64,000 nucleotides of DNA from Pirellulales bacterium (GTDB taxonomy: Bacteria; Planctomycetota; Planctomycetia; Pirellulales; PALSA-1355), in NCBI GenBank assembly GCA_963733035.1, contig CAVTBU010000007.1:352001-416000 (forward strand), read 5' to 3'. Each line of letters opens with the position of its first letter. Within the stretch, counting starts at the first letter, position 1. The notes beneath the pieces are model-generated. The model was not told where the DNA came from and made no database searches. It was given only the letters and a program-made list of their open reading frames with translations. Shown in pieces: positions 14,678 through 44,396 of the stretch. The position numbers were made by a program, and so were the translations under genes.

Positions 14678-15934
14678 CTACTCGCAGTCCCAACCGTCGG
14701 GCACGTTGAAGTCGTGATCGTGCTTGTCGCCGAGAGGCTGGCGGAACAGCACCGGAGCCATGTGCTTGTGCTCGGTGATGTGTACGCGGTTGACCGGCTT
14801 CGGATAGCTGAAGCCAGGCTTCTCGGCCACGTTGATCTTGAACTTCTTGACCGGCGACGGGATGTGGAACTTGGTATGGTTCGCAATCACGTGCTTCTGC
14901 AAACCGGCGGGCACTCCCAACGGAACGTGCGGCGGACCGGGCAGACCAATCGGCGTGCCGCTCATCGGCATGCCATAGTTCGGCGCCGTTACACCAGCCA
15001 CGAACTGTGGTGGAACACCAGCGGGCAGCGCACCGGTCGGACCGGGGAAGCAGACGCCCTGGCCGCATCCGCCGGGACCACATCCGCCAGGCCCGCAACC
15101 CGGACCACCGGCACATGCCGGTCCACTGCCCGGACCACCGGGCATGCCGATGCCAGTCGGTGCGAAGGGCAGGGGACCACCGCCACCCGGCATGCCGATG
15201 AACTCGGCATCGCCACCGGGTACTTCCAGGTCCTTATTGCCCACTCGCACAATGGCCATGATCGCACCGCGACGGTCTGCCTCGACGATCGGATCGACGC
15301 CCGGATCAAGCCGAGTGCTGACCAGCGTCTCGACGTTCGCCAGCGCCAGCTCTTGATATTCGGGATCGGGCAGATAGATCACCTTGGTGACGAAGTTGCC
15401 CGAGAGCACCTGGTCGAAGTCTTCCTCGGTGAATTGCACCGGGATCGCGTTGTGTGCCAGGTAAGCAATGGTCCGCGGCGTGGGCGGGCCAATCTCAAGA
15501 GTCGGATACAACTCGACGCCCGCGCGCCCCGGGATGCTCGTCAGCTTGAGGCGATAGATCGCCCCTTGCGGAAAGTTGTACCGGCCTGGCACCACCAGCA
15601 CCTCGGAGTCAAACGCGCCGGGCTGGCCAATGTCCCAATTGATGTTCATCGAATCAGGACTGACGAACGCGACCTGCGAGGTCGGCGCCGGTCCCATGCC
15701 GCCCGGCGGCGTATAGGGCATCGGGCCAATGATGCCCGGGCCAGGGCCGCCGACGCCCGGGCCGGGTTCGGCCAATACTTGAGCCGGCGGAATGTTGTTG
15801 CGATGGGTAAATTTACCCAGCGGCGGGAGCAGCGACGTCTGGTCGTTGAACTCGCCATAGGGAGGATGCAGGAAGCAGCCGCTGGCGGCTAGCATCGCCA
15901 TCCCCACGAGAATCGAAGCCATGCGATGTTTCAT
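14678..15934 (-). CDS. Conserved lipoprotein with Gly/Pro/Cys-rich tail
   Basis: GGGGGAG RBS; lipobox LAASGC; YRLKLTSIP...ELYPTLEI...IPVQFTEED...SGNFVTKVIYLPDP; GPGGC repeats. Confidence 0.75.
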   Translation of the reverse strand: MKHRMASILVGMAMLAASGCFLHPPYGEFNDQTSLLPPLGKFTHRNNIPPAQVLAEPGPGVGGPGPGIIGPMPYTPPGGMGPAPTSQVAFVSPDSMNINWDIGQPGAFDSEVLVVPGRYNFPQGAIYRLKLTSIPGRAGVELYPTLEIGPPTPRTIAYLAHNAIPVQFTEEDFDQVLSGNFVTKVIYLPDPEYQELALANVETLVSTRLDPGVDPIVEADRRGAIMAIVRVGNKDLEVPGGDAEFIGMPGGGGPLPFAPTGIGMPGGPGSGPACAGGPGCGPGGCGPGGCGQGVCFPGPTGALPAGVPPQFVAGVTAPNYGMPMSGTPIGLPGPPHVPLGVPAGLQKHVIANHTKFHIPSPVKKFKINVAEKPGFSYPKPVNRVHITEHKHMAPVLFRQPLGDKHDHDFNVPDGWDCE

Positions 15935-41524: not shown

Positions 41525-41911
41525 ATGCATTGCGCCACACGCCCACGTCTGACCACGCTCATGGTATTGGCCGCCTATTTGGCCGCCCATACCCTTGGTG
41601 CGCTCTTGCACGAGCGGTTGCACGTTCATGCCGCCGGTGATGTCTGTTGTCATGCTCATGACCACAATCATGGGCACGCGTATGAGACCGAAGCCTCGAC
41701 CCCCGAAGGCAACCTGGCCTCGAAGGGAGCACTGCACGATCACGATTGTGTTGTCTGTCGAGTCACGGGTCAGCCGGTCGTTCCAGCCGTTGCGGCTGAC
41801 TTCGACATGGTCGCGGACGTTCGTCCCGACGCCCTCCCCTGCCCTGCCGCCGCGCCCCGTTCGCTCGCGGTGCGGATCGCTCAATCGCGGGCCCCTCCCC
41901 TCGCCGTCTAA
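41525..41911 (+). CDS. DUF2946-like His/Cys-rich leader protein ending in RAPP
   Basis: N-terminal hydrophobic helix, HVH..CCHAHDHNHGH, HDHDCVVC, C-terminal SRAPPLAV*. Confidence 0.75.
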   Translation: MHCATRPRLTTLMVLAAYLAAHTLGALLHERLHVHAAGDVCCHAHDHNHGHAYETEASTPEGNLASKGALHDHDCVVCRVTGQPVVPAVAADFDMVADVRPDALPCPAAAPRSLAVRIAQSRAPPLAV

Positions 41912-41996
41912 CGGCGTTTGATTGGTCACTCCGCCGGTGCTGCGCGCTTTGAGATTGCGCACCGTCGGCAACCTTTGACTAGGGAGGTACCAGGCT

Positions 41997-44396
41997 ATGG
42001 TAACCGTCCGCAAGGCGTTCAGCTATGTAGGGGCACGTCAAGTGGTGGCGATGTTTCACATCGTTGCCTCCTGGTTGGCGAGCTGGCGGGCTCGCGGAGG
42101 GCAGGCCCTACCGCAGTCGGAGCGGAGCGTGCCCGCCGGCGGCGCGTCGCCTGCCAGATTCCCATCTTCTGGCGATCTGTCCTCGAAGCAACCTCGAAGG
42201 TTCCATTCAGCTATTCGAGCTCAAGCGAACGCATCGCTGGCCCATGAGATTCAGTACGGCGAGATCGATGCCCATTCACACTCACGAGCTCACACGGCCG
42301 TTGAGGCCCTGGCCCAAAGGCTGGCTCGAGCTGTCGATCCCGATCCTGCACTTCGAGGATCCGATTTTGTTTTCTCCTCATGCCTTGGCGGGCGTGACGA
42401 GACGCGGTTGATAGGGCTGGCCTTTCAGAACCGCGGTCCACATCCAAGAGAGCAATTTGCGAGCGATGCCGACGGCGGCCGCTTTCTTGCCGGCGGAACG
42501 GCTCATCTTCAGCCACATCTTCTTGATACCGGGTTCGCAGCGGATGGCCGTCCAGGCGGCCTGCTGCAACACCCAACGCAAGTCGCGGGGTCCGGTCTTG
42601 GCGATGTGCCCTTCTCGTTGTTTGCCGCCGCTGGCGAAGACGCGCGGATGCAGTCCCGCATAGCAGGCGATCGCCTTGCGATAGGTGAAGCGACGGAAGT
42701 CGCCGACTTCGGCCAGGACTGTGGCGCTCACAATCAGGCCGACACCCGGGAAGGTTTGCAGCAGCGCGGCCGTGTCGCGGAATCGCTCGCTGGCGAGGAG
42801 GCGCCGCAACTCCATTTCGGCTTGGGCGATCTGCCGTTCGACGAGGGTCAACTGGTCGACGCACTTCCAAAGGATGGCCACATGTCGCTCGGACAGCTTT
42901 GTCTCGAAGGCCTTCAGGTAGCGAATCAAGCCATCACTCTGCAACCGCGCCGGCCCCGGACGGTTGTTGGCGTTCATGATGCTTTTGACCTGGTGCAGCA
43001 CACGAGCATGCAATCGCGAGAGCTGGTTGCGATGTCGCGTCTGGTCCTTGAGGATTTGTACTTCCAGGGGGGGTGCGTAGGCCAGCGGCAAGCGGCCGGC
43101 GGCCAGCAACTCGGCGACGTTTTGGGCGTCTTCCCGGTCGGTCTTCAGCCGTCGGCCGGCCAACGCCCGGGCGGCCGTGGCATCAGCCAAGACCAGCTTT
43201 TCGACGATCGGTTCCAGCAGGTCCCACAGCCAGCGGTAGAAGCCCACCGCCTCAATCGCGACGACTTGCGGCCGTGGCAGTGCGGCGAAGAACTCGGCAA
43301 TCTGCGCCCGACACTTACAAGCCAGTTTACGAAACGAGATTTCCCCACAACACGGACAGTAAACGCAAACGGTCAACGTGTCCTTGTGCAAATCGATGCC
43401 GACGCACCAATGGTGCGTGAGAGTTCCCATCCTCATAATCAGCCTCGCCATGTAGGGGTTTGGAATCAGCACCCAACGCGACGGCAGGATAACACCCGCC
43501 GCCGACCCCTACATGGTTTCACATTGGTTGAACTATTGGTCGTGATTGCCGTGATCGGCATCTTGGTGGGGCTGCTGTTGCCCGCGGTCCAGGCTGCCCG
43601 TGAAAGTGCGCGGCGGTCGCAGTGCCAAAACAACCTCCGCCAAATCGGCGTGGCAATGCAAAACGCGCACGGAGCCCGGGGTTCCTTTCCACCGGGATTT
43701 ATATCGCGGGCTCCGAACAAGAACGATGATGGCCTGGGGCCCGGCTGGGGTTGGGGCGCGCATTTGATGCCGTACATCGAAGAGGCAAATCTGCAAATCG
43801 ATCTGGCGCGCGAGATCATGGATCCCGTGCACGACCAGGTGCGCCAGACTCGCGTGGCCACCTATCTTTGCCCCTCGGATCCGGATCCGCCGCAAACGTT
43901 CTCGGTGGCGGATGACAGTGGCACCGAACTGACAAAAGTGGCTTTTGCCAATTATGTGGGTGTCGGCGGTACGTTCGAAGTCACGGAGTTTCCCGACACT
44001 GGCACGGGTGTCCTGTTTCGCAACCGGCGGATTCGCATCGCCGAGATCACGGACGGCACCTCCAGGACGCTAATGGTGGGCGAACGCAGCAGCCGTCGCT
44101 CGCCACAAACCACCTGGGTGGGAGCCGTCACCGGTTCGGCGATTCCACCGGTCAACCCGACGTACGATACCGAGGGGCCACCGGTGCTGGTGCTCACCAA
44201 CACCGGCGAGACCGAAGACGACCGCGTGCCGAACAATCTGCTTGACCACGTCGAGGACTCCAACAGCGAACATCCCGATGGCGTGAACTTCCTGCTCTGC
44301 GATGGATCGGTGCGAATCATCAACAACCAGATTGATCCACGCGTCTGGGCGGCACTGGGAACCCGGGCCGGCGGCGAGGAACTCGGCGAGTATTGA
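41997..44396 (+). CDS. DUF1559 prepilin-type protein (H-X9-DG), natively 299 aa, interrupted in frame by an IS1111-type element
   Basis: AGGGAGGT RBS; removing 42022-43521 gives [69 protein letters not shown]. Confidence 0.92.
42034..42377 (-). ncRNA. Putative bridge/seekRNA region downstream of the IS1111 transposase (exact ends unknown)
   Basis: Two parallel modules UGAGCUCG(U/A)-guide-UGG; guides GAGUGUGAA (42283-75, target-like) and AUAGCUGAA (42214-06, equal to donor junction). Confidence 0.7.
42378..43436 (-). CDS. IS110 family DEDD transposase/recombinase
   Basis: VGIDLHK, IEA, KTDREDA, PGVG, YAGLHP...SGGK...[19 protein letters not shown] before 43436. Confidence 0.95.

Follow-up and report, generated by a model that had tools for sequence, protein, structure and literature searches.

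A predicted bridge RNA in an IS1111-group insertion sequence that splits a DUF1559 gene at its Phe-Thr-Leu codons

The window, a stretch of 64,000 nucleotides, harbors a DUF1559 gene that is split by an insertion sequence (IS) between the Phe and Thr codons of its GFTLVELL motif, and the coordinates of the IS and its features are collected in table 1. The tetranucleotide TTCA was found at both element junctions (42018-42021 and 43518-43521), and the comparison among relatives revealed that the left junction always reads ...GT^GAAACCATGTAGGGG and the right junction ...CATAGCT^RAA (the caret marks the junction). The IS is single-copy in its own genome. The product of its recombinase gene (tnp) bears the Pfam domains DEDD_Tnp_IS110 (PF01548; 3.3e-10, residues 24-167) and Transposase_20 (PF02371; 1.9e-25, residues 236-319), and scored 198.8 bits against the NCBIfam model NF033542 'IS110 family RNA-guided transposase' (cutoff 140). 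A putative GL-P----SG motif was also read in the tnp translation; GL-P----S(T)G is given as the C-terminal motif of the IS1111 group in the description by Siddiquee et al. (2024, PMC11187229). The 9-bp subterminal inverted repeats are set 4 and 6 nt inside the element ends, with a further inverted copy of the left-end repeat at 43448-43459, and such repeats are listed at 7-17 bp for the IS1111 group (Durrant et al. 2024, PMC11208160). The non-coding DNA comprises 357 nt downstream of tnp versus 48 nt upstream, and in the IS1111 members described the longer non-coding region is likewise the one downstream of tnp (PMC11187229). On sequence grounds, namely both domains, the repeats, the non-coding layout, the motif and the site-specific insertion, the element falls into the IS1111 group of the IS110 family. 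The first-pass annotation, made from the letters of the window, had taken it for an element of IS110 type with an RNA predicted from the minus strand downstream of tnp, and both the domain matches and the comparative data agree with this assignment. A sigma-70 promoter scan of 41950-43600 returned no sites, and the one terminator-like site in the same interval, on the plus strand, was within chance expectation.

Table 1. Coordinates of the features annotated in and around the insertion sequence (window numbering)
Feature	Position	Strand	Basis and remarks
Open frame of 799 codons	41997..44396	+	Begins at the host start codon, crosses the entire IS on the strand antisense to tnp and enters DUF1559 in frame
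5' fragment of the split DUF1559 gene, MVTVRKAF, with start codon	41997..42020	+	Sequence and translation
3' part of the split DUF1559 gene, TLVELLVV...	43521..44396	+	Pfam PF07596 DUF1559, 1.8e-49; TIGR04294 H-X9-DG-CTERM
Insertion sequence, IS110 family, IS1111 group	42021..43520	-	1,500 bp; ends set by comparison with relatives
Transposase/recombinase gene (tnp), ORF of 364 aa	42378..43472	-	Pfam and NCBIfam matches
Subterminal inverted repeat of the right end (+ strand, ATGTAGGGG)	42025..42033	.	9 nt, fully (100%) complementary to 43506-43514
Subterminal inverted repeat of the left end (+ strand, CCCCTACAT)	43506..43514	.	Repeat-pair search
Predicted bridge/seek RNA core, ~187 nt, closing stem P1 to P1	42177..42363	-	Alignment of 36 distinct relatives and structure test
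P1 closing stem, 5' strand	42351..42360	-	Pairs with 42179-42188; 92.2% paired (helix 1); also repeat-pair search
Predicted target-binding arm, 83 nt	42260..42342	-	Helices 2-4 of the structure test
P2	42327-42342 with 42260-42274	-	94.2% paired; 11 pairs with compensatory change
P3	42312-42316 with 42285-42289	-	93.3% paired; 4 pairs with compensatory change
P4 hairpin	42296-42308	-	96.5% paired; 4 pairs with compensatory change
P5b hairpin (AGCGA-ugcgu-UCGCU)	42224..42238	-	Helix 6; compensatory changes in all 5 pairs
P6 hairpin, after the donor guide	42189..42204	-	Helices 7-8, 67-82% paired; alignment register varies by subgroup
Predicted left target guide, 3' side of internal loop, GAGUGUGAA	42275..42283	-	Covaries with the left flank
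Predicted right target guide region, 5' side of internal loop, AGCCAGCCUUU	42316..42326	-	Covaries with the right flank
Predicted left donor guide, in multiloop, AUAGCUGAA	42206..42214	-	Identical to right end and core
Linker ending UCUCA, candidate right donor guide position	42245..42259	-	Not convincing in the window copy

The two parallel modules pointed out by the first-pass annotation, CCATTCAGCTATTCGAGCTCA (42203-42223) and CCATTCACACTCACGAGCTCA (42272-42292), lie in the non-coding region downstream of tnp, and their common frame CCATTCA-N5-WCGAGCTCA occurs twice in the window and in none of 100 dinucleotide-preserving shuffles. The 9-mer of the former had been equated with the predicted circle junction, and TTCAGCTAT is present both at the end junction of the element (42018-42026) and in the guide at 42206-42214; it has three copies in the 64 kb against 0.15 expected, the third of which, at 14804, is unrelated. 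The pairing count given for the other 9-mer was also right, as GAGUGUGAA against TTCACATTG yields 7 Watson-Crick pairs, 1 G-T wobble and 1 G-G mismatch. Both modules were also found in 43 related elements detected with nhmmer at loci from public genomes and metagenomes. The likeness between 9-mer and junction could in principle be coincidental in GC-rich sequence, where short matches are common and an unrelated TTCAGCTAT does occur, but the paired module appeared in 0/100 shuffles and is conserved and covarying in dozens of independent elements, so that coincidence has a negligible chance of being the explanation and is already refuted by the comparative data.

For the comparisons below, copies that share both guide and flank entered the counts a single time. 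A 44th nhmmer match (L026), truncated inside module 1, was left out of the guide tests; L019 and L022, whose right junction has no TRAA core, were left out of the right-flank test; and L016, L078 and other contig-end copies were left out wherever the flank was missing. Another 18 long loci carry the left-end pattern with no bridge-RNA match; these are truncated or rearranged copies or chance occurrences, and were excluded from every count.

The comparison of insertion sites revealed a single coding context. All 40 unique left flanks end in ...A-R-N-G-T-G-A-A, the reverse complement of TTC ACN YTN, which is an 8-nt context within the FTLVELL codons. The comparison shows that the elements target the codons for (Gly/Ala)-Phe-Thr-Leu, where the prepilin-like helix of DUF1559 proteins begins. 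Our literature search found no report on IS110 elements in DUF1559 genes, nor on IS110 in combination with Planctomycetes and prepilin.

The covariation that the first-pass annotation had proposed as a check was found at two levels, since the region folds as one covarying RNA among 36 distinct relatives and the guides covary with the flanks (40 left and 34 right combinations). In the fold test, which covered 49 pairs in the 36 distinct relatives, 92.0% of the cells were paired, against 33.7-46.6% in six slid controls; compensatory changes were observed in 34 of the 49 pairs, and none of 500 shuffles reached the observed values. In the resulting model, the closing stem encloses both the target-binding arm and the donor region. 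With 14 sequences as input, RNAalifold placed the 5' strand of the closing stem opposite the first CTTCGAGG copy; the model here uses the second copy instead, which keeps the covarying P6 intact. The single-sequence fold of the window RNA was uninformative (z-score -0.46), the structure having come from the alignment alone. Compared with Rfam 15 at a limit of E = 10, the interval 41700-43800 matched no family; two chance matches (CRISPR-DR10 and Ysr251) lie inside tnp and far below the gathering scores. The search of public sequencing runs gave no RNA run among the matches listed, and none with half of the query words.

The words that flank the 9-mers, TGAGCTCG and TGG, are common to both modules, and several copies of the end repeat lie within the element, as would be expected if the modules were DNA-level sites, for example internal copies of the end sequence bound by the transposase, rather than parts of an RNA. 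These flanking words, however, are helix strands that covary with partners 30-60 nt away (helices 2, 3 and 5), a pattern that fits an RNA fold and not duplex DNA. The variable part of module 1, in addition, tracks the flank and not the element, and the protein family is documented as RNA-guided, all of which makes a DNA-level role very improbable. We consider it highly probable that the minus strand of 42177-42363 encodes the bridge RNA (seekRNA) of this IS1111-group member of IS110. The bridge RNAs described for the IS1111 group sit in the right end, often with the donor nucleotides in a multiloop (PMC11208160). We infer the transcription of this RNA, its ends and its binding by the recombinase; by homology, the recombinase would make and bind the RNA as in IS621 and ISEc11.

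Among the relatives, the 9-mer at 42275-42283 and the left flank vary together where the Thr and Leu codons have synonymous positions, which supports the role of left target guide that the 9-mer had been assigned. Over 40 unique guide/flank combinations, position 3 matches the left flank in 34 (25.6 expected, p = 0.0003), whereas position 4 forms Watson-Crick pairs in 18 (9.1 expected, p = 0.0004) and Watson-Crick or wobble pairs in 30 (18.5 expected, p = 0.0001), permutation p-values that, like those below, overstate independence because the sequences are related. True mismatches at position 4 make up the other 10 of the 40; a guide C faces a target C in 7/7 cases and a guide G faces a G in 9/11. 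Position 1 exhibits no covariation (17/40 matches versus 16.8 expected), and for this reason the working guide is of 8 nt; the first-pass annotation was thus correct on the role of the 9-mer and not on its length.

A right target guide had been proposed at 42232-42227, and the GCGTTC found there does equal 42015-42020. This GCGUUC, however, lies in the loop and stem of the covarying P5b hairpin, and it matches the own right flank over at least 6 nt in only 3/34 elements. The 5' side of the target loop matches the own right flank over at least 6 nt in 11/34 elements. Across 34 unique guide/flank combinations, 119 of 204 positions match where 99.8 are expected (p = 0.0002, and up to 0.0016 with other window sizes). 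By this covariation, the real right target guide is the 42316-42326 region; in the window copy, its pairing with the own flank is limited to 4 Watson-Crick and 2 wobble pairs. The target arm carries an internal loop whose guides overlap by four nucleotides, the core T-R-A-A, and the junctions suggest that strand exchange takes place between the T and the R of this core. In the IS1111 seekRNAs described, the segment that matches the top strand is located 5' of the one that matches the bottom strand (PMC11187229).

The 9-mer at 42206-42214, which the first-pass annotation had read as a donor guide, changes together with the right end of the element among relatives, as expected of a left donor guide. 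The C-to-T variant ATAGTT occurs in the guides of L025, L063, L075 and L078, with the same right end in 4/4, and every element with an ATAGCT guide has an ATAGCT end. The donor guide AUAGCUGA (42207-42214), predicted to lie in the multiloop, would pair with the right end of the element. The proposed order of target before donor also stands; in IS621 the first 104 nt contain the target loop (Durrant et al. 2024, PMC11208160). With regard to the other donor guide, the linker forms only 3+1 contiguous pairs with the left end in the window copy, in line with the earlier remark that no right donor guide is clear there. A split 5+5 match was observed in 4/36 relatives and a 5+3 match in 2, comparisons in which covariation cannot be read because the left end is invariant. 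Linker/left-end pairing, ungapped or with one bulge, was mostly no better than in shuffles, as 20/36 relatives have a score of 4, which is likewise the mode of the controls. The right donor guide appears degenerate in the window copy, to the point of near absence, and the 9-bp subterminal repeats may substitute for it.

The first-pass annotation had further suggested that one guide may tolerate synonymous codons. At the Thr third position, wobble accounts for 12 of the 22 non-Watson-Crick pairs. The Phe third position is faced by G in the left guide of 39/40 elements and by U in the right guide, and the right-junction targets are TAAA in 24/38 and TGAA in 12/38; as this position is read by G and U in the two guides and the target is A or G, each insertion involves one wobble pair at the core. 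One and the same element, with the same guides, occupies a TTT site at L015 and a TTC site at L016. The own genome has 27 sites, four of which, the occupied one included, are of the Ala-Phe (GCN TTY) type preferred by the right guide; 11 of the 27 are free of true mismatches if wobble is allowed, versus one by Watson-Crick pairing only. It is conceivable that rG-dT and rU-dG pairs at the Phe and Thr third positions and the Leu first position let one RNA accept several paralogs, and an rG:dT pair is reported as tolerated at target position 4 of IS621 (Durrant et al. 2024, PMC11208160; Hiraizumi et al. 2024, PMC11208158).

The same observations can be read in another way, in which the guide is specific to the codon set TTC ACA CTC with GCC in front of it, the insertion seen here is off-target or drifted, and the wobble pairs are a by-product of base composition and mismatch tolerance. 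An unoccupied site of the same genome (C9:123664) matches the left guide perfectly (9/9), the 10/40 pairs at position 4 noted above are plain mismatches, and the IS621 screens, as reported, show low mismatch tolerance (PMC11208160). Guide U opposite target C, the most frequent wobble class, was counted 11 times where ~9 are expected from the marginal frequencies, so enrichment of wobble is not demonstrated. The G and U that face the Phe third position in the two guides, the dual occupancy of TTT and TTC sites, and the 11 versus one accessible sites speak against this strict specificity, which nevertheless keeps an appreciable chance of being correct, if short of an even one. Wobble at synonymous sites is frequent, and the counts fit both a selected reading of codons and simple mismatch tolerance; selection for codon reading is unproven.

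The element is also peculiar in how it sits in its target gene. Its length is divisible by three in 25 of 32 distinct elements (in-frame range, 1,404-1,557 bp), and in all 25 of these the frame of the interrupted gene is free of stops. The far end of the element encodes His-Gly-Phe, and by these codons a new Gly^Phe-Thr-Leu-Val-Glu-Leu-Leu processing site (here the caret marks the site) is rebuilt at that end. The 500-residue antisense product matched no Pfam family, and none of the papers listed in our literature search describes an in-frame, stop-free autonomous IS within its target gene. Tentatively, since we hold this to be somewhat less than an even possibility, the IS clade may have evolved to be harmless to the host gene: read-through from the host start would yield a fusion from which prepilin peptidase removes the ~500-residue leader, freeing a normal mature DUF1559 protein, and the guide wobble would be part of the same adaptation. 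If so, the removal of an element-encoded leader would parallel, at the level of the protein, what is known from introns and inteins.

Among described systems, the element resembles the IS1111 seekRNA elements ISEc11, ISKpn4 and ISPa11 in its DEDD recombinase with GL-P----S(T)G, its subterminal inverted repeats, its long non-coding region downstream of tnp and the position of the top-strand-complementary segment 5' of the bottom-strand one, and its target arm of 83 nt is near the 82-96 nt of the short seekRNAs (PMC11187229). It differs from these elements, as described there, in that its target is a coding motif of paralogous genes in a fixed codon phase rather than a repeat, transposon end or attC; the overlap of its guides is a 4-nt core that includes a degenerate R; its host belongs to the Planctomycetota; and the whole element is an in-frame open insert (PMC11187229). 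With IS621 it shares two guide pairs for opposite strands on either side of a common core, a target module 5' of the donor module and a natural rG:dT pair in target recognition, and the split right donor guide of IS621, with flipped-out bases, resembles the split 5+5 match mentioned above (PMC11208160; PMC11208158). Unlike in the accounts of IS621, the RNA is in the right end and not the left, left and right guides follow the reverse order in the loop, a multiloop and not an internal loop holds the donor guide, the core is T-R-A-A and not CT, the crossover appears limited to one base, and the subterminal repeats are long (PMC11208160; PMC11208158). The Rickettsia palindromic elements and other in-frame intragenic MITEs are similar as mobile DNA that lies in coding genes, keeps the host frame open and is translated within the host protein; derivatives of 75 bp, which we observed on contig C8 of the own genome and at L096, are of similar size to them (PMC10969869). 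Compared with the Rickettsia elements as described, the present one is a full autonomous IS of 1.4-1.56 kb, open opposite its own transposase gene, and it regenerates the processing motif of the host protein at its far end (PMC10969869).

The clade constitutes a naturally replicated data set, with dozens of elements and one conserved coding target. With bridge and seek RNAs, a new class of guides for programmable recombination has emerged; to our knowledge, few IS1111-type examples exist so far, and donor recognition in this type is unclear. Because both target guides can be read against synonymous codon variation, the rules of mismatch and wobble become testable from natural data, and the reversed guide order, the multiloop donor guide and the 4-nt degenerate core would be useful in IS1111-type engineering. 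An autonomous IS kept strictly in frame and free of stops in its target gene points to a very unusual selection on mobile DNA, and if the host protein is still made, this would represent a new route for a transposon to cut its cost.

The tnp ORF (42378-43472, minus strand, 364 aa) encodes a product that matches both IS110-family recombinase domains in Pfam and exceeds the cutoff of the NCBIfam model NF033542, 'IS110 family RNA-guided transposase'. Read in tnp orientation, with a slash marking each boundary, the left junction is ...CAATGT/GAAACCATGTAGGGG and the right junction ...CCCCTACATAGCT/GAACGCC; the element therefore occupies 42021-43520 (1,500 bp), and it carries subterminal inverted repeats of 9 bp and is present once in its genome. 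The plus-strand flanks, ATG GTA ACC GTC CGC AAG GCG TTC on one side and ACA TTG GTT GAA CTA TTG GTC GTG on the other, encode the start of a DUF1559 protein (PF07596, 1.8e-49) with an H-X9-DG C-terminal domain, and the Phe-Thr-Leu target named in the first-pass annotation was correct (TTC / ACA TTG). Four more distant IS110-family recombinase genes, with 26-33% identity, were also found in the same genome. Near the right end, GTTTCACAT (42053-42061) is an exact repeat of the left junction (43516-43524); the relatives have CATGTRAA after a purine-rich run at the equivalent place, giving ATG plus a stop, and this repeat may act as a mimic of the target, as an additional site for the recombinase or as a start-stop element. 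A conserved -35-like hexamer (42036-42041, minus strand TTGACG; TTGACA at the same place in relatives) is found some 10 nt in from the right end, facing outward, and could form a promoter across the circle junction; a linear scan for a sigma-70-like site found none.

Relatives were collected by a protein-seeded scan of species genomes (17 loci, 45-88% identity, mostly Planctomycetota MAGs) and by a scan of metagenome contigs with a 17-nt left-end word (116 stretches, 80 of them taken with flanks), the left junction being fixed by that word in most metagenome loci. A profile from the first alignment placed the non-coding RNA region in 44 loci. All readable left flanks, comprising 40 unique guide/flank combinations, ended in A-R-N-G-T-G-A-A, the reverse complement of TTC ACN YTN, then VELL codons, and tnp was antisense to the target gene in every case. 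Two loci (L019 and L022) showed the usual target in the left flank and TGCG or TGTG in place of TRAA after the right end, and may represent rearranged or atypical insertions.

The two modules described on first pass, CCATTCAGCTATTCGAGCTCA (42203-42223) and CCATTCACACTCACGAGCTCA (42272-42292), were recovered at those coordinates, both within the 357 nt separating the tnp stop codon from the element end, and their shared frame occurred twice in the window and in none of 100 shuffles. The 9-mer TTCAGCTAT was present at 42018-42026, where the element ends, and within the first module, with 0.15 occurrences expected by chance; a third copy at 14804 is unrelated. An RNA structure was taken from a MAFFT alignment of 36 distinct sequences and then tested. 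Standard pairs filled 92.0% of 1,762 cells, compared with 33.7-46.6% when the 3' partners were slid by 1-3 columns; the fold derives from the same family used for counting, and these slid controls argue against an artefact. Changes on both sides were observed in 34 of the 49 pairs, and none of 500 column shuffles reached any observed structure measure. The words flanking both 9-mers, TGAGCTCG ahead and TGG behind, form helix strands that each pair with a UGGGC-type word, which accounts for the parallel look of the modules.

Positions of the predicted RNA features, the left-end repeat and the distant recombinase genes
Feature	Position	Remark
Closing stem	42351-42360 with 42179-42188	
Target arm, 83 nt	42260-42342	Has internal loop
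Internal loop, 5' side, AGCCAGCCUUU	42316-42326	
Internal loop, 3' side, GAGUGUGAA	42275-42283	Second 9-mer of the first-pass annotation
Linker	42245-42259	
Second arm, outer helix		Uses GAGCUC, the word preceding the donor 9-mer
Second-arm tip	42224-42238	Covarying hairpin
Donor 9-mer	42206-42214	Copy of TTCAGCTAT, unpaired in multiloop
Last hairpin	42189-42204	
Inverted repeat, perfect, 12-nt	43448-43459 / 43505-43516	Inside left end, just upstream of tnp start
Distant IS110-family recombinase genes	C5:53843-54814, C5:32588-33595, C6:246681-247553, C6:263943-264815	Contigs of the same genome

Many IS1111 bridge RNAs are reported to lie at the right end, with donor-binding nucleotides in a multiloop (Durrant et al., PMC11208160), and the RNA predicted here fits both features. 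It also fits the short seekRNAs of 82-96 nt described by Siddiquee et al. (PMC11187229), which have the top-strand match 5' of the bottom-strand one. The predicted RNA is a further example of an already known bridge/seek RNA type. Of the comparative checks suggested earlier, covarying pairs were found in the 36-sequence alignment of homologous IS non-coding regions, and covariation of guide and target in the 40 guide/flank combinations.

The assignment of the first 9-mer as donor guide was borne out by coordinated change. An AUAGUU variant occurs in the donor guide of five elements, and in all four whose right end lies on the contig (L025, L063, L075, L078), spread over three or more subgroups of the aligned sequences, the right end is also ATAGTT; all remaining elements have ATAGCT in guide and right end alike, and AUAGCUGA comprises right end plus core. 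The left end is invariant across relatives. The last five bases of the linker, immediately before the helix, are UUUCA or UCUCA, and the linker's complement to the left end is split 5+5 in 4 of 36 relatives and 5+3 in two, which resembles the split right donor guide with flipped-out bases reported for IS621 (PMC11208158). In the window copy this match is only 3+1 and not above shuffled controls, in agreement with the first-pass statement that no right donor guide was clear.

The second 9-mer, proposed as the target guide, covaries with the flank as a left target guide but over 8 nt rather than 9. Its positions 5-9 (GUGAA) do not vary, and neither does the target. At position 4, which faces the third base of the Thr codon, pairing is Watson-Crick in 18/40 combinations versus 9.1 expected by permutation (p = 0.0004) and rises to 30/40 versus 18.5 with wobble included (p = 0.0001), the other 10 pairs being plain mismatches. 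Position 3, opposite the Leu first base, agrees in 34/40 versus 25.6 (p = 0.0003). All p-values given for the guides are optimistic because the sequences are related. Position 1 showed no covariation (17/40 versus 16.8 expected), hence a working guide of 8 nt. Guide C accompanied target C in 7/7 cases and guide G target G in 9/11, and guide U was found with C 11 times (U-G wobble), G three times, T twice and A once.

The right target guide suggested earlier, GCGUUC (42232-42227), sits in the loop and stem of a hairpin whose five pairs all covary, and it matches the own right flank over at least 6 nt in only 3/34 relatives; this candidate was rejected. For the 5' side of the internal loop, matches of this length are found in 11/34, and 119 of 204 positions agree with the reverse-complemented right flank versus 99.8 expected (p = 0.0002, with the register picked alike for real and permuted data; p up to 0.0016 with shorter windows). 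Good examples include L025 (11 contiguous pairs, one of them U-G) and L018 (8). The window copy fits its own flank poorly (4 Watson-Crick and 2 wobble pairs); its right guide is GCC-UUU, corresponding to Ala-Phe, and among the 27 candidate sites of its genome the best four are exactly those with Ala at position -1, the occupied site included.

Both target guides cover the core T-R-A-A, and the base opposite R is G in the left guide of 39/40 elements and U in the right guide, so that TTT-Phe insertions use rG-dT and TTC-Phe insertions rU-dG every time. The protein-seeded loci, a set without bias for the R base, have TGAA at the left junction in 16/16 cases and, at the right junction, TAAA in 10, TGAA in 4 and another sequence in 2; R therefore comes from the element at the left junction and from the target at the right. 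The base preceding the core T has the opposite origin, and the exchange thus maps to this single T, barring biased mismatch repair. L015 and L016 carry identical guides and are copies of a single element, one in a TTT and the other in a TTC site. The proposal that wobble serves to accept synonymous codons is plausible by analogy with IS621, for which natural targets differing from the guide at one position and forming rG:dT are reported (PMC11208160; PMC11208158), but is unproven as an adaptation, base frequencies alone predicting close to the observed number in the main wobble class. In the same genome, 11 of the 27 sites are mismatch-free solely when wobble is counted, and the left target guide fits an empty DUF1559 paralog start (C9:123664, GGG TTC ACA CTC) at 9/9 positions.

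The host ATG opens a plus-strand ORF (41997-44396) that crosses the complete 1,500-bp element antisense to tnp and continues, still in frame, into the DUF1559 gene. Both ends were present for 32 distinct elements. The length is a multiple of three in 25 of them (16 different lengths, 1,404 to 1,557), and none of these 25 contains a host-frame stop, compared with averages of 13.6 and 16.8 in the other two same-strand frames; the non-coding region by itself has 0 versus 3.2 and 3.3. The lengths of this region in the 25 elements fall on 14 different multiples of three, with a single outlier of 292 nt (L053, whose longest tnp-strand ORF is in another frame), and the indels of the RNA alignment span 3, 18, 18 and 3 columns. 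In the seven elements of other lengths, the tnp ORF is broken in five (204-332 aa) and intact in the remaining two (360 and 372 aa). Antisense stops within tnp correspond to TTA, CTA and TCA codons, which are absent from 24/25 in-frame elements, L053 being the exception. Their share is 0.96% of all codons across 1,773 long ORFs from the same genome (crude GC3 filter), and only 43/510 of its ORFs of similar length lack them; the four distant IS110-family genes hold 3-6 each, and none has an open antisense frame.

The final insert codons are ...Pro-Leu-His-Gly-Phe in 25/25, so the far junction regains a Gly|Phe-Thr-Leu-Val-Glu-Leu-Leu site. Target leaders are ordinary and short, any visible ATG lying 6-40 codons upstream, and on contigs that reach far enough the downstream target ORFs are intact over 230-370 codons. 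Two end-to-end derivatives of 75 bp (25 codons), both open and in frame, were found in another DUF1559 paralog of the same genome (C8; L002 1497-1575) and on metagenome contig L096, and the 12-nt inverted repeat is the likely recombination point behind them. At C8 the left end is joined to the right-end terminus across the internal repeat. In L066 the right flank shows that the leader upstream of the insertion ends ...NFSRPLHGF, derived from the left end of an earlier element, which suggests re-insertion into a site rebuilt by a previous copy.

That selection keeps the insert open and in frame seems secure. One purpose might be to let translation carry on into the host gene, with the giant leader then removed by prepilin peptidase; the avoidance of transcriptional polarity is an equally possible one. 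No Pfam domain was found in the antisense product. Our literature search found no publication on a fixed-phase coding target, a wobble-read degenerate core or an in-frame whole element, and the nearest analogue of the last is the in-frame intragenic MITEs, such as the Rickettsia palindromic elements (PMC10969869). The clade is set apart by its coding target at a fixed codon phase, by a degenerate 4-nt core read with wobble on both strands, and by the in-frame state of the whole element.
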